Source of the DNA: Escherichia phage vB_EcoM_01
Direction: 5' to 3' (one strand)
DNA length: 64,000 bases
Sequence record: PP129558
Shown: positions 1 to 57,281 of the stretch, piece after piece
Position numbering within the stretch: position 1 is the first letter of the stretch
Layout: each line of letters begins with the position of its first letter
The notes under the pieces: model-generated
Databases searched by the model: none
Told to the model about the DNA's origin: nothing
What the model saw: the letters and a program-made list of their open reading frames with translations, nothing else
Position numbers and translations under genes: made by a program

Positions 1-236
<236 letters not shown>

Positions 237-682
237 GATAAATAAGTGTTTGTGTGATTTATAATCAGGTGGCCCACCTTGTCGCTATGTTGGCATGAGC
301 CTTGCATAAGTCATTGAATACGAATGATAATTATTCTCATTCGCATGATATTTGGGAATTGTCGCTGCGTGGACCTGACGGCCCGAAAATTCGCGTTAAG
401 CACTTCTTACGTATGCGCCATGATTTTTGCCATATGATATTGATTCTATTAGATATTCTTGCCATGATTGCCATGAAACAGGGTGTCCCGAAATAATCTC
501 TCCCCGTGGATATTTTGGGTTACTTTTTATACAAGAGTGGGGTGTCAAAAATAATCGGTATATATGGGATAATTGATAGGAATCCCCTATGATAATTCGA
601 TTGTAATTCCTTAAGATTGATCGTATGATGTTGGTGATTGATGATTGCCATGAAAGATGGCTAACGATGAGAGGAGATTATC
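237..682 (+). promoter_or_regulatory. Non-coding leader with repeated ATGATTGCCATGAAA-type motifs upstream of the first gene
   Basis: 15-nt motif at 464-478 and 641-655, related copies at 417-438 and 459-470; no ORF with RBS. Confidence 0.35.
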
Positions 683-1057
683 ATGCAAGAGAGTAAAAAT
701 GTTCCGTTGAGTAGTGCAACATTACTTCGCTTCTATAAAGCATGGATTGCCAACTATCCTGCAATGAATCGCACAACGAGTGGCTTATGTGGTTGTCTGG
801 TAGATTATGTAAATGATTTTGTTGGTGAGACACCTAGAGAAGAAGATAGAAAATGGCGTGATCATTTGTTGGACCGTTTGAAATATGAAATGAGGAAACA
901 ATTTACATGTGCAGGGCTGGACTACAATCTTCCGTTCAATGTGGATTGCATGGATTACCTTTCAGAGTGTATAAACTTGGCGTGTCATACCAACACGTTA
1001 CGTCTTCAGTGGGTGAAAGATCGGATTGAAGATGCAAATAATGCTTGCATTGAATAA
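683..1057 (+). CDS. Hypothetical protein; member of 5-copy paralog family (GLCxCL ... GL..PF ... RxxWVKxR)
   Basis: GAGGAG RBS; motifs shared with ORFs at 4886, 8106, 11403, 12708. Confidence 0.5.
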   Translation: MQESKNVPLSSATLLRFYKAWIANYPAMNRTTSGLCGCLVDYVNDFVGETPREEDRKWRDHLLDRLKYEMRKQFTCAGLDYNLPFNVDCMDYLSECINLACHTNTLRLQWVKDRIEDANNACIE

Positions 1058-1106
1058 AGATGTTTGTATAATGGATGACATAACAGATAGCCAATGAGGA
1101 GATGAA

Positions 1107-1316
1107 ATGAAGAATTTGAAAACTGTCACAATGTTCTTGACTGATCCTACACGTGTGCAAGCACTGGCTAAAGCCAGCCGTGTAGCTGTAGAATTCCAAA
1201 ACTTTAAGCCGTCCGTTGTGACAGGCAGTGAAACGTGTGTTATCGATTTCATTAACGAATACTTCCGAGGGAATCCGGTTGGTCGTTACTTTATTAAGGG
1301 TCTGAAGGATGCATAA
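1107..1316 (+). CDS. Hypothetical protein
   Basis: ORF with GAGGAG RBS. Confidence 0.4.
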   Translation: MKNLKTVTMFLTDPTRVQALAKASRVAVEFQNFKPSVVTGSETCVIDFINEYFRGNPVGRYFIKGLKDA

Positions 1317-1539
1317 TATGAAACGCATGAAAATTCGTATTGAGAATGATGGTGGTTATAAAGGATTGGCACATGCAAAATTTCCACTTGTGTTGGAAGC
1401 TACAGTGGAATACAGTGGGCTTGCTCATGTACGATTCTCGAAGATGATGGAAGTGCAGGAATGGTTTTGGGACGAGATAGATGCACGAGAAGGGGAAGAT
1501 TATGTTTTCTTTCCTCATGAATATAACATTGTTTATTAA
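1309..1539 (+). CDS. Hypothetical protein; C-terminal W-F-W-D-E-I-D...DYVFFPHEYNIV motif shared with ORF 5596..5817
   Basis: ORF; paralog similarity read by eye. Confidence 0.4.
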   Translation: MHNMKRMKIRIENDGGYKGLAHAKFPLVLEATVEYSGLAHVRFSKMMEVQEWFWDEIDAREGEDYVFFPHEYNIVY

Positions 1540-1542
1540 AGG

Positions 1543-1791
1543 TTGTGTGCAATGATCACACCACAACAGAACGCAGCAGCAATGGATCTTCTTGATAGTT
1601 TGTATTTCGATAATTGGTACTCTGAATGTGAATGGATGAATATGCAAACTCTGAAAGAGAAGACAGAAGCGTTGATTACAGTAGATCAATTTCTTGCAGA
1701 GACGGAAAGAATGAATTATGATATGGCATCTCGCGCACGACGCGTTTCCATTTTCAATAAAATGTTAGCATTATGGGGAGGTAGAAAATGA
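1543..1791 (+). CDS. Hypothetical protein
   Basis: ORF in dense same-strand array. Confidence 0.4.
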   Translation: MCAMITPQQNAAAMDLLDSLYFDNWYSECEWMNMQTLKEKTEALITVDQFLAETERMNYDMASRARRVSIFNKMLALWGGRK

Positions 1792-2249
1792 GACAATTCA
1801 CTGTACTGGCAGCTTATGTGCAATGTGTTCACGACTATGTTAGTGCTCATACAGGTGTGCTGGAAGTTACCAGTAAAATTGAAGGTAATATGGGTACTGT
1901 CTGTGTGCAACATACTTTATCCAATGTACCGTTTAAAGTGTTCACTGTTGTAGCTGCCGATTACAATCGTGTAGATGTGCGTTTCTTGGATCATAATTTT
2001 CGTAACGCGCTAGATAATATCGAAGATTATCTTCCCGTGAAACCTTTGTCATTTCCACCAAATCGTGCAAATAATGTAGTGACAAATCTTAATGAAAGGA
2101 ATGTGGCTATGCACAAAAAAGTCCGTCAACTGAAAACGCTGATGGAAATGCAAGAAGAGATTGAAAAAGAACTGAAAGAAGATTTTGGTATGCTTCCAAA
2201 AGACGCTTTGAAATGGTATGATGAGTTAGGAGGAGAGAACAATGTTTAA
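1788..2249 (+). CDS. Hypothetical protein
   Basis: ORF, GGAGG RBS, start overlaps upstream stop. Confidence 0.45.
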   Translation: MRQFTVLAAYVQCVHDYVSAHTGVLEVTSKIEGNMGTVCVQHTLSNVPFKVFTVVAADYNRVDVRFLDHNFRNALDNIEDYLPVKPLSFPPNRANNVVTNLNERNVAMHKKVRQLKTLMEMQEEIEKELKEDFGMLPKDALKWYDELGGENNV

Positions 2250-2691
2250 AGAAGGTCATGTTTACCGTTTCCAGGATGAAGATTATATGCGACTATATTC
2301 TACCTTTGATAACAGTATTGCTGCTATCATCGGAGAGAATTTTTTCGAGGTGTTGAGCACTGATGCAAATGGTAATATCTTGTCAATGGTTGTGATAGGT
2401 ATGAGGGACGGTATTATCACTGCTGGCGATGGGGATCGTTACATAATCAATTCTGCTCATATAGATTATTTTGTTGACGGCGGTGGTCGTGGAAAACCCC
2501 AAGAAGAGCCTGTTGATACAACAAAAGAAGAGTGGTATGTTGTAATGACTGGTGACACCTGTATCTCTGGATCTCAAAGTTATGAAGAAGCTTTGAAAGA
2601 AGCAGCAGAGCATAAAATGACTAATCCTACAGAAGAGGTTGAAGTTTATAAACGTTTGGTTGTTGCTACCATCGGCGTATCTTTTGTTTAA
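2242..2691 (+). CDS. Hypothetical protein
   Basis: ORF with AGGAGGAG RBS. Confidence 0.45.
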   Translation: MFKEGHVYRFQDEDYMRLYSTFDNSIAAIIGENFFEVLSTDANGNILSMVVIGMRDGIITAGDGDRYIINSAHIDYFVDGGGRGKPQEEPVDTTKEEWYVVMTGDTCISGSQSYEEALKEAAEHKMTNPTEEVEVYKRLVVATIGVSFV

Positions 2692-2703
2692 AAGGGGNNT
2701 NTT

Positions 2704-3141
2704 ATGTTNAAAGCTAATGCTGTTTACTGTTTCAAAAGTAAAGCTGCCTGTGAAGCTTTCTCTGTGATCTCGGATGAAAATTTCAAAATGGCAGCTTTGA
2801 TTGAAGGGTCTTGTTTTCGCGTCGAAGATGTTAGTGAATCAGGGTCTGTTTGCTCATTGACTTTATTGGACAGCGGGGATATTATTGAAGCTGGACAGTA
2901 TCCGTTCAGAAGTTGGGAGATATTGTTAGCTCGCGGAGAGCGTAACTTTTTTATGTGCGTGTCTGCGGGGGAAGTTGTGAAAGAAACTAAGGATGTTTCT
3001 GTTTACAATTCTGAATTTATAAGTTATAGTGAGTATCAACATCTGGAAGGCATTGTTGGTCACTTGTTATCTCTGATTGACATTGAATGTGACCTTCCTG
3101 AATCATTGAAAGAAGAGTTGAAAGCATTAGATCTGCTGTAA
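2704..3141 (+). CDS. Hypothetical protein (ambiguous bases near start)
   Basis: ORF; N bases at 2698-2709. Confidence 0.4.
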   Translation: MXKANAVYCFKSKAACEAFSVISDENFKMAALIEGSCFRVEDVSESGSVCSLTLLDSGDIIEAGQYPFRSWEILLARGERNFFMCVSAGEVVKETKDVSVYNSEFISYSEYQHLEGIVGHLLSLIDIECDLPESLKEELKALDLL

Positions 3142-3168
3142 TGTTTCGCACAACGAAAGGAGAATAAG

Positions 3169-3468
3169 ATGAATCTGACTGAACAGTTACGCCGTATTGC
3201 AAAAGAAGCTTCCTTCAACTTCCCTGTTGAAGAAGTGATCGAGACATGTTTTGCTGAAGCACGAGCGGGAAACTCTTCAAGAAATTTCACGCCATCTGAT
3301 TTTGGTCTGGATAATTCCCCTACCCACCCAGGGGCGATCTACAATCAGGTGAAGTGGATGGATGAAGCAGTAGCAATTCTTCGTGAGCGTGGGCTTATTG
3401 TTTATAAAGAAATGGATTTGAACGGGGCATACGAGTGGATCACTATTGATTGGTCGGAGGTGAAATAA
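3169..3468 (+). CDS. Hypothetical protein
   Basis: ORF with AAGGAG RBS. Confidence 0.45.
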   Translation: MNLTEQLRRIAKEASFNFPVEEVIETCFAEARAGNSSRNFTPSDFGLDNSPTHPGAIYNQVKWMDEAVAILRERGLIVYKEMDLNGAYEWITIDWSEVK

Positions 3469-3677
3469 TGGTTACTATCACATTGACAGTTACACAAGAG
3501 CAAGCAGAAGAATTACGTGATGCACTGGCATATATGGGACGCGCTTATTATATGCCTCACAAATCTCAAGATGTTTTTGCTACAGCCGTTGAGAAAGCTT
3601 TAAATAAATACCAAGAAACTCATGCCGTTCCTAAAGTATCAGCGGAAGAGTTTGGCACTTGGCACGAAGTTCACTGA
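3450..3677 (+). CDS. Hypothetical protein
   Basis: ORF with GGAGG RBS. Confidence 0.4.
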   Translation: MVGGEIMVTITLTVTQEQAEELRDALAYMGRAYYMPHKSQDVFATAVEKALNKYQETHAVPKVSAEEFGTWHEVH

Positions 3678-3687
3678 GGAGGTTTCG

Positions 3688-3921
3688 ATGAAAGGTAACA
3701 AGATGAAAGTTAATCAAGTGCCGAGCGCATACACTTTGTGGCTTGCACGAGCGTTACACCAGACGATCAAAAACCCTAAGAAGCCAATGAAGAGCGGGAA
3801 GAAGTTTATGTCTAAGGGCAAAACAACCTTTGGCTTCACTCGTATGTCTGTTAAGATGAAAAGACTGGGGTACAAGCCAAACTACGCTCGTTACCCTTCT
3901 GAATACAACTGGTTTGACTAA
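3688..3921 (+). CDS. Hypothetical Lys-rich basic protein
   Basis: ATG at 3688 preceded by GAGGAGG; table ORF 3622 trimmed to RBS-supported start. Confidence 0.4.
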   Translation: MKGNKMKVNQVPSAYTLWLARALHQTIKNPKKPMKSGKKFMSKGKTTFGFTRMSVKMKRLGYKPNYARYPSEYNWFD

Positions 3922-4019
3922 AAGGAGGAAGATTATGGCTACTTTTCAACAACTGAAAGATGTTTCACGTTTAGTAAGAAAAATCCGAGAAGCAGACGCT
4001 GCTGCTGTCTCTTATACAN

Positions 4020-4609
4020 NNNNNNNNNNNNNNNNNNNNNNNNNNNNNNNNNNNNNNNNNNNNNNNNNNNNNNNNNNNNNNNNNNNNNNNNNNNNNNNNN
4101 NNNNNNNNNNNNNNNNNNNNNNNNNNNNNNNNNNNNNNNNNNNNNNNNNNNNNNNNNNNNNNNNNNNNNNNNNNNNNNNNNNNNNNNNNNNNNNNNNNNN
4201 NNNNNNNNNNNNNNNNNNNNNNNNNNNNNNNNNNNNNNNNNNNNNNNNNNNNNNNNNNNNNNNNNNNNNNNNNNNNNNNNNNNNNNNNNNNNNNNNNNNN
4301 NNNNNNNNNNNNNNNNNNNNNNNNNNNNNNNNNNNNNNNNNNNNNNNNNNNNNNNNNNNNNNNNNNNNNNNNNNNNNNNNNNNNNNNNNNNNNNNNNNNN
4401 NNNNNNNNNNNNNNNNNNNNNNNNNNNNNNNNNNNNNNNNNNNNNNNNNNNNNNNNNNNNNNNNNNNNNNNNNNNNNNNNNNNNNNNNNNNNNNNNNNNN
4501 NNNNNNNNNNNNNNNNNNNNNNNNNNNNNNNNNNNNNNNNNNNNNNNNNNNNNNNNNNNNNNNNNNNNNNNNNNNNNNNNNNNNNNNNNNNNNNNNNNNN
4601 NNNNNNNNN
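4020..4609. other. Assembly gap (N run) with duplicated flanks and adapter remnants
   Basis: 3856-4006 repeats at 4630-4780; CTGTCTCTTATACA at 4007-4018 and ACACCACGTCTG at 4610-4621. Confidence 0.8.
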
Positions 4610-4708
4610 ACACCACGTCTGTTGTNNAGATGAAAAGACTGGGGTACAAGCCAAACTACGCTCGTTACCCTTCTGAATACAACTGGTTTGACTAAAAGGA
4701 GGAAGATT

Positions 4709-4885
4709 ATGGCTACTTTTCAACAACTGAAAGATGTTTCACGTTTAGTAAGAAAAATCCGAGAAGCAGACGCTGCTGTGCGGAATGCACTAACGCCAGC
4801 AGAGCGTGAAGATCTTGAAGAGGAGGTGAAAACAGCCGAGAATGCTTTTGCTGCGTATCTTTCAACACTGTATACAGGAGGTTAA
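4709..4885 (+). CDS. Hypothetical protein (5' end also present in duplicated flank at 3935)
   Basis: AAGGAGGAAG RBS then ATG; 59 aa. Confidence 0.4.
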   Translation: MATFQQLKDVSRLVRKIREADAAVRNALTPAEREDLEEEVKTAENAFAAYLSTLYTGG

Positions 4886-5200
4886 ATGTCAGAGGAACTT
4901 AAAGAATTTTATCAGGTATATCATAACTGGCTATTAGCTGGTGCTCCAGATAATAATCCTTTCTGGCATGATAAAGGGTTATGTAGCTGCCTATATCTTT
5001 GGTCTGGTGGTTATGATGACCTAAATTATGAAATGCAAATGCAATTCCGCGAAGCAGGTTTGTCTGAAGAATACCCGTTTGATGATGGGGATTGGTTTAA
5101 ATATGATTTTGCACAAAGAAACGGGCTGCTACATTTGAATGCTGCTCGTATAAAATGGGTAAAAGATCATGCCACACAGGAGGATGTGCAATGCCTATAG
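4886..5200 (+). CDS. Hypothetical protein; paralog family member (GLCSCL ... GLSEEYPF ... RIKWVKD)
   Basis: ORF with AGGAGG RBS; family motifs. Confidence 0.5.
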   Translation: MSEELKEFYQVYHNWLLAGAPDNNPFWHDKGLCSCLYLWSGGYDDLNYEMQMQFREAGLSEEYPFDDGDWFKYDFAQRNGLLHLNAARIKWVKDHATQEDVQCL

Positions 5201-5391
5201 TGTTTGTTTTCTTGGCAATTGTTATGGTGGTTCTTTTCGCTGCATGGCTTTGGGATTTTGACCCAGGAGCCGCGCAGCAAAGAGCTACAGACTTGAAAGA
5301 ACAATGTATTGTGCTCAAACATGAACGAAATGCGGAGAAATTTCTTGACCTGGAGTGTGATCGCCTTGTAAGATACAAGCAAGATAAATAA
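5191..5391 (+). CDS. Hypothetical small membrane protein
   Basis: Hydrophobic N-terminus IVFVFLAIVMVVLFAAWLW; AGGAGG RBS. Confidence 0.35.
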   Translation: MPIVFVFLAIVMVVLFAAWLWDFDPGAAQQRATDLKEQCIVLKHERNAEKFLDLECDRLVRYKQDK

Positions 5392-5405
5392 CCTTGAGGT
5401 GCAAA

Positions 5406-5594
5406 ATGGTAATTGAGATTAAACTTGAACATGCTGGGGCTGTTGCCTTGATCGCACAAATGCTTGGAGCAAAGATTGAAGAAGTGTATATCAACGCCTG
5501 GAGCGTAGAGATTGATGTTCCTATGGACAACATTGCTAATCGCTTGCTGGTGGCAGAGTGTGAACGCACCAACATAATCTACAAAGGAGCATAA
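5406..5594 (+). CDS. Hypothetical protein
   Basis: ORF with GAGGTG RBS. Confidence 0.35.
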   Translation: MVIEIKLEHAGAVALIAQMLGAKIEEVYINAWSVEIDVPMDNIANRLLVAECERTNIIYKGA

Positions 5595-5595
5595 T

Positions 5596-5817
5596 ATGAA
5601 AATTAGAGTTTGTGATGTATTGGGTTATGTTGGTTTTGAGAATGTTCAGATTCCTTTTGTTGTTGAAGCACATCTTGTTAGTGAGGATATGACAACATTC
5701 TTTGTTACGATAGAAGAAATGTCCAAAGTTGAGGGATGGGAGTGGTTTGAAGAAGATGTTTGGGAAGGTTGTGATTACGTATTTTTCTCTGACGAAGTGA
5801 ATGTTCTTGCGGAGTAG
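5596..5817 (+). CDS. Hypothetical protein; C-terminal DYVFF motif paralog of ORF 1309
   Basis: ORF with AAGGAG RBS. Confidence 0.4.
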   Translation: MKIRVCDVLGYVGFENVQIPFVVEAHLVSEDMTTFFVTIEEMSKVEGWEWFEEDVWEGCDYVFFSDEVNVLAE

Positions 5818-5819
5818 GT

Positions 5820-6026
5820 ATGTCTTGTTTTACAAAAGCAGTATCCATATGTAAGAAACAGTATGAAAGTGATTACGGAATATTTAATATTCCAGTAGAT
5901 CATACAGTGTATTGTTCATGTGGTAGCAGAATGAAGAAAACAGTGATTTATGCGGATAATGGAGATGAACTTGTTCCAGTTATGGTTTGCAAAGCTTGTC
6001 ATTCTGTTAAAACATTAAAAGCGTAA
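5820..6026 (+). CDS. Hypothetical small Cys-rich (zinc-ribbon-like) protein
   Basis: CSCGS ... CKACHS spacing. Confidence 0.4.
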   Translation: MSCFTKAVSICKKQYESDYGIFNIPVDHTVYCSCGSRMKKTVIYADNGDELVPVMVCKACHSVKTLKA

Positions 6027-12661: not shown

Positions 12662-12690
12662 GCACCCCGTTCTGCGGGGTGTTATTGTAT
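12662..12690 (+). terminator. Rho-independent terminator-like hairpin (CACCCCG-TTCT-GCGGGGTG + T-rich)
   Basis: GC stem then TTATTGTAT directly after stop of gene 12045. Confidence 0.5.
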
Positions 12691-13380: not shown

Positions 13381-13800
13381 ATGTTAGGTAAGATCAAAGC
13401 TTTTTTCAAACGTATTGTTGAAGGAAGTCCAACAGAAGGTGCATTAGGAAGATCTCTAACAGGAGAACCACTTGCCATAATTTCTATCAGTCGGCATGGT
13501 GGATATTCCATTCGACAAACACCTTTAGGTATAGAAGGTAGTATGCTTTCTTGGACAATATCTCAAGTTGGTGATAACAGACTTGCAGCTATAGCGTTAC
13601 TTCGTGGGGAGTATGACCACTGTTTATCAGCATCTTGTAAGAAGCACCTCATAGAGCACATTAGAGACAGAGTAGAAAGAGAAGGCGGATACTTCTTCGA
13701 AACTAAGAGAAACGAACAAGGAACTCTTGACTTCACTAAGGTTTACTGGGACAATCATACTCGTCAAACTGTTGAACAACTTCTGGAGGAAAGATGTTAA
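13381..13800 (+). CDS. Hypothetical protein
   Basis: ORF with AGGGGGA RBS. Confidence 0.45.
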   Translation: MLGKIKAFFKRIVEGSPTEGALGRSLTGEPLAIISISRHGGYSIRQTPLGIEGSMLSWTISQVGDNRLAAIALLRGEYDHCLSASCKKHLIEHIRDRVEREGGYFFETKRNEQGTLDFTKVYWDNHTRQTVEQLLEERC

Positions 13801-14003
13801 AAGCTTTTGCTGTATACTCTACTGTAGGATTCTTTTATTGGATTATAGTTGTTGTTGGATGTTGGTTGGGTTCTTCTGTTGTGATGGGAGAATGGTTAAC
13901 ATACAATGTATTTGAATGGGATGTAGTTTGTAGATCATTGCTTGTTATATGGACTGCTATTGTTTGTTGGATAACTGTTAGTCTAACATTAGATCTATAT
14001 TGA
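13794..14003 (+). CDS. Hypothetical small membrane protein
   Basis: Two hydrophobic segments. Confidence 0.35.
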   Translation: MLKAFAVYSTVGFFYWIIVVVGCWLGSSVVMGEWLTYNVFEWDVVCRSLLVIWTAIVCWITVSLTLDLY

Positions 14004-14363
14004 TTAATAGATGGTAGATAGATGATCATAGTTTATCTACCTTCACTTACGTTTCATACCTCACTATCGTGAGTAACATGAAACATTATTATATAGAAAT
14101 CTACTACTCGCTATCGCTCGTAAACATATGTTTAGGGTACCATATTTTTTTGAAAAAGTCAATGCTGACTCACCTATCAATTATCTGTTTAAGATAAGTC
14201 TTACCTATCAATCTAACTCTTAACTAGTATTGCACCTATAGTAAGACTATTCCTATAGTTATTAACCATCTTCTTCTGTAGAATGTAATTAGATCCTTGA
14301 CAAACTCACAAAGCTTGTGTTACATTGTGTCTCACAGGTGAATAATACCGAACAGGAGGAAGA
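14004..14363 (+). promoter_or_regulatory. 360-bp non-coding region with repeated CCTATCAAT / CCTATAGT motifs and a TTGACA-N17-TTACAT promoter (14297-14325)
   Basis: No ORF with RBS; direct repeats; promoter-like motif before gene 14364. Confidence 0.4.
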
Positions 14364-14579
14364 ATGAGTTCCAATTTTCTATACAAAGCAAAAGATTCAC
14401 GAGATGGAGAGAACCATTGGTGGTTGATCACAGTAGATGGTGTTATCATCCTACCGTGGGACGGAGAGACGAAAGTTCAAATACTAGAGAAAGTAAAAGG
14501 TGTTAGTTTTAATGTTAGTCATGACATAACAACTTTCAAAGCTTTTGCTATGAATCCTAGTCTTGTTGCTGAATGGTAA
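14364..14579 (+). CDS. Hypothetical protein
   Basis: ORF with AGGAGG RBS. Confidence 0.45.
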   Translation: MSSNFLYKAKDSRDGENHWWLITVDGVIILPWDGETKVQILEKVKGVSFNVSHDITTFKAFAMNPSLVAEW

Positions 14580-14592
14580 TCCAGGAGAAGAT

Positions 14593-14811
14593 ATGACTAA
14601 AATGTATGCAGCCGTTGATAAGCTGGATGGGTCTGATTCTGTTTTTATTTTGAATAAAATGGGTGTCTTAGTTTATGCCCGAACTTCTCAAAACATAGAG
14701 CACCAAGTGGAAGCAGCACAAATTTTAGAGCAAATAACCCCTCCATACCTATACTCAAATGTTGAGCGTTTTAACGATGCACTTGGTTTGACGTTAATAG
14801 CGGAATGGTAA
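14593..14811 (+). CDS. Hypothetical protein
   Basis: ATG after AGGAGAAG RBS. Confidence 0.4.
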   Translation: MTKMYAAVDKLDGSDSVFILNKMGVLVYARTSQNIEHQVEAAQILEQITPPYLYSNVERFNDALGLTLIAEW

Positions 14812-36123: not shown

Positions 36124-36975
36124 NNNNNNNNNNNNNNNNNNNNNNNNNNNNNNNNNNNNNNNNNNNNNNNNNNNNNNNNNNNNNNNNNNNNNNNNNNNNN
36201 NNNNNNNNNNNNNNNNNNNNNNNNNNNNNNNNNNNNNNNNNNNNNNNNNNNNNNNNNNNNNNNNNNNNNNNNNNNNNNNNNNNNNNNNNNNNNNNNNNNN
36301 NNNNNNNNNNNNNNNNNNNNNNNNNNNNNNNNNNNNNNNNNNNNNNNNNNNNNNNNNNNNNNNNNNNNNNNNNNNNNNNNNNNNNNNNNNNNNNNNNNNN
36401 NNNNNNNNNNNNNNNNNNNNNNNNNNNNNNNNNNNNNNNNNNNNNNNNNNNNNNNNNNNNNNNNNNNNNNNNNNNNNNNNNNNNNNNNNNNNNNNNNNNN
36501 NNNNNNNNNNNNNNNNNNNNNNNNNNNNNNNNNNNNNNNNNNNNNNNNNNNNNNNNNNNNNNNNNNNNNNNNNNNNNNNNNNNNNNNNNNNNNNNNNNNN
36601 NNNNNNNNNNNNNNNNNNNNNNNNNNNNNNNNNNNNNNNNNNNNNNNNNNNNNNNNNNNNNNNNNNNNNNNNNNNNNNNNNNNNNNNNNNNNNNNNNNNN
36701 NNNNNNNNNNNNNNNNNNNNNNNNNNNNNNNNNNNNNNNNNNNNNNNNNNNNNNNNNNNNNNNNNNNNNNNNNNNNNNNNNNNNNNNNNNNNNNNNNNNN
36801 NNNNNNNNNNNNNNNNNNNNNNNNNNNNNNNNNNNNNNNNNNNNNNNNNNNNNNNNNNNNNNNNNNNNNNNNNNNNNNNNNNNNNNNNNNNNNNNNNNNN
36901 NNNNNNNNNNNNNNNNNNNNNNNNNNNNNNNNNNNNNNNNNNNNNNNNNNNNNNNNNNNNNNNNNNNNNNNNNNN
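36124..36975. other. Assembly gap (N run) flanked by 148-bp exact duplication
   Basis: 35976-36123 equals 36976-37123. Confidence 0.8.
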
Positions 36976-53463: not shown

Positions 53464-53844
53464 TCCATATTCNGTCTCTTATNNNNNNNNNNNNNNNNNN
53501 NNNNNNNNNNNNNNNNNNNNNNNNNNNNNNNNNNNNNNNNNNNNNNNNNNNNNNNNNNNNNNNNNNNNNNNNNNNNNNNNNNNNNNNNNNNNNNNNNNNN
53601 NNNNNNNNNNNNNNNNNNNNNNNNNNNNNNNNNNNNNNNNNNNNNNNNNNNNNNNNNNNNNNNNNNNNNNNNNNNNNNNNNNNNNNNNNNNNNNNNNNNN
53701 NNNNNNNNNNNNNNNNNNNNNNNNNNNNNNNNNNNNNNNNNNNNNNNNNNNNNNNNNNNNNNNNNNNNNNNNNNNNNNNNNNNNNNNNNNNNNNNNNNNN
53801 NNNNNNNNNNNNNNNNNNNNNNNNNNNNNNNNNNNNNNNNNNNN
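53464..53844. other. Assembly gap (N run) with duplicated flanks
   Basis: 53322-53463 repeats at 53860-54002; AGAGACAG adapter remnant at 53845-53852. Confidence 0.8.
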
Positions 53845-55049: not shown

Positions 55050-55517
55050 AACGCGTCTCTGACACACTTTTTATATATAAGATGATAAATCACCTTACCT
55101 AGTAAGTAAACTTGCTCTACGAGCCTCTTATGAAGCTTATGTTATAGGCTATACTATTACTACCTGTTTAAGCAAGGTTTTGCACACAGAAATAATTTTT
55201 TAATAAAACTCTTGACTTTTGTGTTCGAAGTATGCTACCCTAGAAATCTATTAACGAGCGCAGCGAGTTAAGGTTTTAGGTTGTTGATGTAGTACTCTGT
55301 ACTCAAGTACTGTACTCCGTACTAGATTAATAATTATTAAATATTAATAATAAATAATTATTAGATCTAACAAACAGGTACAGTGTATCAGAACTGGTAC
55401 GTACAGATCAACTTCTATCAATTAAAAATAAAATAATAAATTATTATAAATAATACTTGATCTATAGATCAGTATGAAGTACAGTACGTAACATCTTAAC
55501 AAGAATGGAGGTGTGCA
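55050..55517. promoter_or_regulatory. AT-rich divergent intergenic control region with GTACT(C) iterons and a perfect palindrome
   Basis: Five GTACT repeats 55292-55324; palindrome TGATCTATAGATCA ~55458-55471; no ORF. Confidence 0.5.
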
Positions 55518-57193: not shown

Positions 57194-57281
57194 GGTGAGT
57201 TAATTCCGTAGGGGTAGCGGGGCAGACTGTAAATCTGTTATCATTGCGATTCGGGTGGTTCGACTCCATCACTCACCACCA
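57194..57281 (+). tRNA. tRNA-Tyr (anticodon GTA), long variable arm
   Basis: Acceptor GGTGAGT/ACTCACC, loop CTGTAAA. Confidence 0.6.

Follow-up and report, generated by a model that had tools for sequence, protein, structure and literature searches.

The longest gap between neighbouring genes in the local part of the plus-strand early block of Escherichia phage vB_EcoM_01 lies at positions 14004-14363 of the stretch taken from record PP129558. The present analysis concerns this 360-bp intergenic island and a promoter-hairpin cassette found on its minus strand. The window, that is, the whole stretch of 64,000 nucleotides that was analysed, comprises the first 64 kb of the genome of a phAPEC8-like Phapecoctavirus (Stephanstirmvirinae); around the island (13700-14700) it is 99.7% identical to Escherichia phage KKP 3954 and at least 95% identical to 64 phage records. 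The surroundings are a block of small plus-strand early genes, all of unknown function according to a Pfam and PHROG look-up of the flanking genes. The left border is formed by a plus-strand gene for a hydrophobic protein of 69 residues (13794-14003, phrog_24123), the stop codon of which ends at 14003. On the right, the AGGAGG ribosome-binding site (RBS) at 14354-14359 precedes a plus-strand gene for a 71-residue protein (14364-14579, phrog_16110). A preliminary description had singled out the gap as unusually long for a tightly packed gene array, and this is borne out by the well-annotated relative ASO2A, in which the gaps around the same spot range from overlaps to 95 bp; longer gaps occur only nearer the start of the early block. 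The island is mildly AT-rich, with a GC content of 29-33% compared with about 38% in genes, and the GC skew is inverted over 14050-14300. A tRNA and tmRNA scan of the island returned nothing, and a search of the island and of the bacterial loci described below against Rfam, at the gathering threshold and at E <= 10, gave no credible family.

The preliminary description had proposed a comparison with related phages for conservation and covariation, and both were found. Positions 14013-14220 are 82% identical in the divergent Phapecoctavirus-like phages phiWec190, phiWec181 and PsgM04F, whereas the flanking genes of the same phages have diverged to 63% and 70% identity in DNA and to 44% and 56% in protein. 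The plus frame of the upstream gene is kept in phiWec190 at 43.5% amino acid identity. Because the block is kept better than its flanks, the non-coding sequence is under stronger constraint than its coding neighbours. A sensitive DNA search extended the conservation to 14070-14166 in Justusliebigvirus phages such as phi92 (79% identity) and to 14104-14163 in Citrobacter phage Tr1 (85% identity). The deep conservation ends at the distal of two ACCTATCAAT boxes, beyond which different genes are found in phiWec190.

The conserved core reads, on the minus strand, as TTGACT-N17-TGgTACCCT (14162-14134) followed by a hairpin (14122-14105), and this arrangement of a predicted promoter and a leader hairpin is referred to as the cassette. 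The -35 element TTGACT (14157-14162) agrees with TTGACA in five of six positions and is separated by a 17-nt spacer from the extended -10 element TGgTACCCT (14134-14142). From the usual promoter spacing, transcription would be expected to start at about 14127. Sixteen distinct copies of the cassette from different phages were aligned (alignment A2). The letters TT.A of the -35 element, the TG, the stretch TACCCTA and the hairpin core CGAGCG...GCGAG are invariant in all 16 copies; this includes the A at position 2 and the T at position 6 of the -10 hexamer, and 13 copies share TTGAC in the -35 element. The letters of the spacer vary between copies, and its length is 17 nt (the copy in the island) or 18 nt (copy B, see below). 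Fixed letters in the hexamers and a fixed TG around variable spacer letters are what a promoter, and not a single binding site, would be expected to show.

The leader hairpin, hp1 (14105-14122, minus strand), has the sequence UACGAGC-GAUA-GCGAGUA with tandem G.A mismatches in its stem. As DNA, TACGAGC-GATA-GCGAGTA starts 13 nt beyond TACCCT, and hp1 would thus begin about 6 nt after the predicted start. Over the 16 copies, 81% of the alignment cells at the stem positions are paired and the covariation score is 0.326. Shuffled controls gave 0.173, none of 500 reaching the observed value, and sliding the pairing partners gave at most 0.155. One base pair is C-G in eight copies and A-U in five, and another is U-A in six, U-G in six, C-G in three and G-U in one. 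If the hairpin were read from the opposite strand, seven wobble pairs would turn into A.C mismatches and the two internal G.A pairs into mismatches of pyrimidines. Since the wobble and G.A pairs fit only one strand, hp1 belongs to the promoter-sense strand.

Beyond hp1 the minus strand continues through a two-tier hairpin, hp2 (14086-14053), and then through a hairpin at 14041-14013 that is considered below with the plus-strand signals. The hp2 sequence, GTTTCAT..CTCAC-tatc-GTGAG..ATGAAAC on the plus strand, has an inner loop GAUA when read on the minus strand, and in phiWec190 other bases keep its outer stem paired. Its motif CATGTTA is common to other copies, as CATGTTAY in the copies of the same type as that in the island (A-type) and in chromosomal islands. 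Another small hairpin between the -10 element and hp1 (hp0) is present in some copies but absent from most, and was discarded. A strong bidirectional terminator-like hairpin (GCACCCCG...CGGGGTG) lies at 12662-12682, where a minus-strand transcript from the island could plausibly stop next.

A covariance model (R1) built from the alignment found exactly two copies in the window. The copy in the island, copy A, is matched over the full length of the model on the minus strand (14099-14168, 75 bits, E = 1.3e-16). Copy B lies on the plus strand at 55206-55275 (65.3 bits), with TTGACT at 55212-55217, TACCCT at 55236-55241 and the hairpin, here with a GCA loop, at 55251-55271. It is located in a 480-bp divergent gap upstream of a tRNA block and points towards that block. 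A consensus scan of 55087-55517 listed no plus-strand promoter candidate besides copy B. The sequence 3' of copy B (within 55270-55517) contains five GTACT motifs (at about 55290-55325), a 16-bp inverted repeat of A and T only (TAGATTAATAATTATT / AATAATTATTAGATCTA) and, ahead of the first tRNA-block gene, a stretch of 22% GC; these features are possibly an unwinding element or protein-binding sites. A third copy, copy C, is found in ASO2A at about 136.85-136.90 kb. It has the same direction as its neighbours, and a structured leader, an RBS and a gene come after it; the phi92 copy is likewise followed by an RBS and a gene.

The cassette is present in all examined Stephanstirmvirinae, and each of two metagenomic contigs of about 150 kb has three copies. 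Copy A opposes both of its flanks in the window, in phiWec190, PsgM04F, Tr1, muut and FKP3, and in two metagenomic genomes. In Justusliebigvirus muut the A-type cassette is followed by the orthologue of the gene at 14364-14579; copy A lies just upstream of that orthologue, so the position is syntenic across genera. A first pattern scan of IMG/VR was swamped by chance matches, which was resolved with a stricter pattern. Soil contigs in IMG/VR contain an unrelated repeat, TACCCTATCCCCCCC(A/T)ACGAGCG(A/G)AG(G)CGAG, arranged in inverted pairs about 100 bp apart. It has a similar ACGAGC-GAA-GCGAG(T) core, lacks a -35 element and is probably a different element from the cassette.

A strict pattern was also applied to one genome per bacterial species and returned 14 matches. 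About half of these were chance matches in GC-rich DNA without a -35 element, two were phage contamination, and five were genuine full-length cassettes: one in Citrobacter sp. OP27, on a complete chromosome (CP191518.1), two in Buttiauxella metagenome-assembled genomes (MAGs), one in a Scandinavium MAG and one in an unclassified MAG. All five score 48-64 bits over the full length of the model, in the building of which none of them was used. One IMG/VR contig carries the same kind of chromosomal island and forms a sixth member. In four of the six, the cassette starts within tens of bases of the stop codon of a tyrosine integrase gene and points away from it; on the other side of the integrase the Citrobacter chromosome has ordinary genes (LysE, amidase). 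The leader of the chromosomal islands runs in the order hp1, a hairpin with a GAA loop, a third hairpin, an RBS and a small open reading frame (ORF). Compensatory changes (UAUCCC/GGGAUA, CUCCU/AGGAG and CUCUC/GAGAG) are seen in the stem of the GAA-loop hairpin, and the third hairpin, CUUUCAUG...CAUGAAAG, resembles hp2 of the window. A gene for a DUF5906 primase-like protein is located 2.5-3 kb downstream of the cassette in all six members, and the IMG/VR member also has an endonuclease-VII-like gene. No protein is common to the chromosomal islands and the phage sequence compared, the cassette being the only sequence they have in common; in the alignment of 16 copies, the cassette of the chromosomal islands is closest to a phage copy of the B type. 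Neither the phage cassette nor that of the chromosomal islands gave any similarity against 5,426 complete E. coli genomes. The chromosomal islands resemble small integrative elements, possibly phage satellites, in which the same promoter-leader unit is used.

The plus strand of the intergenic island carries signals of its own at both ends. At the left end, a terminator-like hairpin for the upstream genes is found at 14013-14041, GGTAGATA(GAT)...(GTT)TATCTACC, with a weak T-tail. Its plus-strand RNA folds into an 11-bp stem; counted as 8-11 bp, the stem has three G-C pairs, and the tail TTCACTTA contains four T in eight positions. The ASO2A annotation places a rho-independent terminator (TransTermHP, WebGeSTer) at the equivalent of 14013-14051, and a simple terminator scan did not report the hairpin at 14013-14041. 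Substitutions in phiWec190 give G.U pairs on the plus-strand RNA and C.A mismatches on the minus strand, and the hairpin was assigned to the upstream plus-strand genes because pairing is kept in this way on the plus-strand RNA only. At the right end lies the putative promoter of the downstream gene (14297-14326), well placed at 28 nt 5' of AGGAGG and 38 nt 5' of the ATG. The preliminary description had read it as TTGACA-N17-TTACAT; TTGACA (14297-14302) and TTACAT/TACATT are present, and the site is more aptly given as TTGACA-N18-TGtTACATT, which has 10 of 12 matches plus the TG. Both hexamers are identical in phage ukendt. Promoter-like matches as such are in no excess in this DNA over shuffled sequence (23 found versus 19.3 expected). 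The suggestion that the gap is a transcriptional boundary is plausible in view of the terminator annotated in ASO2A, the G.U pairs on the plus strand and the extended -10 promoter before the next gene.

Two pairs of direct repeats had also been described, and both were found where they had been placed: CTCACCTATCAAT at 14169 with CTTACCTATCAAT at 14200, 31 bp apart, and CCTATAGT at 14235 and 14252. The statistical weight of the repeats by themselves is weak, since 84% of Markov simulations of the island contain repeated 8-mers and about 7% contain two 13-mers that differ by one mismatch (p about 0.07), the latter being marginal alone. The CCTATAGT pair (14235-14259) was rejected as a meaningful element, being at chance level in these simulations, mutated in ukendt (ACCATAAG and ACTATGGG on the minus strand) and absent from phiWec190. 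The first pair contains the two ACCTATCAAT boxes, ATTGATAGGT on the minus strand. The proximal box (14172-14181) lies 9-10 bp 5' of the minus-strand -35 element, with its centre at about -50, and the distal box (14203-14212), 31 bp from the proximal one, lies 40-41 bp 5' of it, with its centre at about -81. Both boxes are invariant in ukendt, phiWec190, PsgM04F and phiWec181, that is, in all Phapecoctavirus-like lineages examined, though the flanking genes have diverged to 44-56% amino acid identity. Tr1 and FKP3 have GATAGG or ATAGG at the same distance as the proximal box, and copies B and C have A/T-rich sequence in place of the boxes. The sequence ACCTAT recurs at 14234, in an exact 31-bp period, and this third ACCTAT is mutated in ukendt. 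Thus, the proposal of regulator-binding sites is plausible for the invariant ACCTATCAAT pair and does not hold for CCTATAGT. Elsewhere in the window, the plus strand has the box and its flank for a third time at 568-580, where 13 nt match the proximal box and its flank exactly (shared stretch ATAATTGATAGG). This copy is contained in another long non-coding stretch (231-682), which opens the early block and is part of a 1.5-kb gap in ASO2A.

The reading favoured here, with a probability of roughly 60%, is that the island combines a plus-strand terminator-like hairpin and a plus-strand promoter with its RBS with a conserved minus-strand promoter-hairpin unit that makes an antisense non-coding RNA. 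The left-end hairpin would close the upstream early genes, and at the right end the extended -10 promoter of sigma-70 type together with the RBS would start the next gene. Between them, host RNA polymerase would initiate at about 14127 on the sigma-70-type minus-strand promoter and run leftwards. The resulting RNA would carry hp1 near its 5' end, encode no protein and be antisense to the plus-strand terminator and to the upstream early genes, into which it would extend; hp1 could serve as a common 5' tag that stabilises the RNA or is recognised by a trans-acting factor. The sequence conservation, the paralogy of the copies, the covariation of hp1, the orientation of copy A and the absence of coding are shown by the present data, whereas the firing of the promoter, the start and extent of the RNA and the role of the RNA or its hairpin are inferred. 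Because the cassette heads mRNAs at two other phage positions as well as the main operon of the chromosomal islands, it is read as a promoter plus a 5' leader hairpin, and since copy C, the phi92 copy and those of the chromosomal islands lie in such promoter-like contexts, copy A would by analogy yield an untranslated antisense RNA. The small RNA that the preliminary description had considered is thus possible, but on the opposite strand, from a conserved promoter absent from that account, and without a canonical terminator. Also absent from that account were the minus-strand polarity of the element, its paralogues at other places in the genome and its conservation throughout the subfamily; the observation is thus confirmed, and its interpretation supported, only in part.

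Several observations weigh against this reading. The -10 hexamer TACCCT has only three of the six consensus positions of TATAAT, and a generic scan omits the site, although the extended TG may offset the weak hexamer. The invariance of TGCTACCCTA exceeds what a sigma-70 promoter needs. The hp1 cores of 15 of the 16 copies fit the rule GCGN(N)AGC for DNA mini-hairpins (PMC13037366), and a role of the core as single-stranded DNA may be compatible with this fit. No canonical (U-tract) terminator was found on the minus strand in the five A-type lineages examined, and past hp1 the minus strand of phiWec190 folds no better than shuffled sequence (z = -0.65). Finally, the literature searched holds no transcriptome, start-site or promoter study of this subfamily.

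Phage cis-antisense RNAs such as lambda oop and P22 sar have defined terminators and targets. Copy A resembles them in having a promoter directed against its neighbours and, as predicted here, an untranslated RNA overlapping the upstream transcription unit at its 3' end. It differs in having no canonical terminator on that strand and in that ordinary mRNAs are headed by the same promoter-leader at other places in the genome. Another point of reference is provided by the lambdoid antitermination sites, namely the boxB hairpins of nut and the PR'-qut arrangement with its short 6S transcript. Here too a short conserved element lies just 3' of a few promoters, the hairpin has a G...A-type loop, copies A and C of the cassette have a terminator-like hairpin no more than about 100 nt further on, and the genome is rich in predicted internal terminators (n=55 in ASO2A). 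In contrast to these sites, the cassette has no boxA, its downstream hairpins lack U-tracts, and no N- or Q-like protein was identified. The cassette is likened to the lambdoid sites by its arrangement, and antitermination here is hypothetical.

A more tentative proposal, which we regard as possible, is that hp1 (CGAGC-GNA/GNNA-GCGAG) together with the invariant -10 sequence TGCTACCCTA forms a recognition tag for a phage factor, and that the chromosomal islands copied this tag as helper-sensing satellites. The factor might modify RNA polymerase, bind RNA or act as an antiterminator. Such a tag would be used at three control points of the phage, and the backward-firing copy could shut down or time the early genes. 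The islands of Citrobacter, Buttiauxella and Scandinavium would then switch on their operon upon infection by such a phage.

It was also considered whether only the plus-strand terminator, the boxes and the plus-strand promoter are functional. The minus-strand cassette would then lack a functional transcript and be kept as a recombination or shuffling cassette or as an unproductive RNA polymerase insulator. The terminator hairpin is indeed tuned to the plus strand, and the plus-strand promoter is a good one. In phiWec190 the gene content shifts precisely where the conserved block ends, with extra genes inserted there, and Tr1 has different flanks. Such breakpoints recall the PeSL cassettes, mediators of shuffling in T4-like phages (PMC4122927). 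However, the orientation of copy A, its hexamers, the TG and the pairing of its hairpin are kept across genera, none of which a mere patch of homology needs, and in distant relatives the boxes stand at a fixed distance 5' of the minus-strand -35 element. This explanation is therefore considered unlikely.

The PeSL cassettes (PMC2839356, PMC4122927) are the closest objects described, and the present cassette nevertheless falls outside their definition. Both combine an early promoter of sigma-70 type with a stem-loop, are conserved as DNA and repeated, and are located in gaps between small early genes and at breakpoints of gene content. PeSLs are composite terminator/promoter units with simple stems that are found preferentially in hyperplastic regions. 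The cassette, in contrast, occurs in three copies per genome, one of them backward, and has its hairpin 3' of the start rather than as a terminator; that hairpin has an invariant CGAGC-loop-GCGAG core with tandem G.A pairs, and the unit is also found in chromosomal islands. In ASO2A, many annotated pairs of a promoter followed by a terminator occur among small early genes at 1-6000 and at 146-151 kb, and these pairs resemble the PeSL cassettes of T4-like phages.

A replication origin primed by transcription is another candidate, rated as decidedly doubtful. On this view, RNA from the promoter would act as a primer or form an R-loop, the mini-hairpin on the displaced non-template strand would serve a primase or helicase loader, and the boxes would be iteron-like. 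In T4, several origins per genome are found near switches of transcription direction, oriF and oriG combine a promoter with an A+T-rich unwinding element, and oriE combines an early promoter with evenly spaced direct repeats (PMC3016281). The cassette shares with them a promoter in a non-coding gap, evenly spaced repeats (here boxes 31 bp apart), several sites (three per genome) and, at copy B, a position at a divergent junction followed by the 22% GC stretch and its long AT-only inverted repeat. There is no sequence relationship to the T4 origins, and the cassette differs from them in heading mRNAs and operons of the chromosomal islands as well. The 15 hairpin cores mentioned above fit GCGNAGC or GCGNNAGC, a motif reported at the primase sites of phages G4 and St-1, at RSF1010 ssiA and at the early promoters of N4 (PMC13037366). 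The N4 promoters, to which the cassette is similar in this core and in occurring three times per genome, differ in being single-stranded hairpins that are read by the virion RNA polymerase without a -35 or -10 element. No phage RNA polymerase was found in the ASO2A annotations looked at, 68-118 kb being outside them. Against an origin, copy C, the phi92 copy and all copies of the chromosomal islands lead into a structured leader, an RBS and a gene, as promoters of mRNAs do, and in the chromosomal islands the cassette stands at the head of an operon directly after the integrase gene. Moreover, only two boxes are conserved, the third ACCTAT being lost in ukendt, the intergenic island at 14 kb is only mildly AT-rich, and GCGN(N)AGC is not enriched in the window (18 found versus 19.7 expected).

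That the island instead encodes the 39-residue protein phAPEC8_0059 (14078-14197, plus strand) is highly improbable. The window has no stop within this ORF, and several GenBank records of relatives annotate it. However, phiWec190 has a stop at codon 3 and a later in-frame stop despite 82% DNA identity, the conserved box would be read in another codon phase in the muut sequence as read here, an RBS-like purine run is not seen by eye in the 15 nt that precede the ATG at 14078 (no formal scan was made), and this is the sole ORF of the neighbourhood without a PHROG family, nor does it match Pfam. A minus-strand ORF from the ATG at 14029 was likewise rejected, as ukendt has ATA in its place and early stops occur in phiWec190 and PsgM04F. 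The designation of the island as non-coding thus holds, and the 39-residue gene annotated here in many GenBank records should be dropped.

Gene control in the phAPEC8-like and phi92-like phages is barely known, though they are widely isolated for therapy. No description of the cassette was found in the literature searched. Being conserved above its surrounding genes, it offers a concrete handle on the transcription programme, and copy A, which points against the early genes, is a candidate antisense or timing switch. Its position at the head of integrase-primase islands hints at a possible new helper-satellite relationship.

Three minor observations were made on the sequence record itself. A run of about 150 C (4-155) is followed by an Illumina/Nextera P5 adapter (GATACGGCGACCACCGAGATCTACAC...TCGTCGGCAGCGTCAGATGTG), and the start of the record (1-230) is a sequencing or assembly artefact rather than phage DNA. 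Runs of N, corresponding to masked or unresolved sequence, are present at 4019-4609, 36124-36975 and 53483-53844 and at several sites of 1-4 nt (1,837 N in total), none of which overlaps the 14-kb island. Finally, a twelfth tRNA was recognised by Rfam at 57194-57278 (39 bits), where ARAGORN made no call and ASO2A has a tRNA-Tyr.

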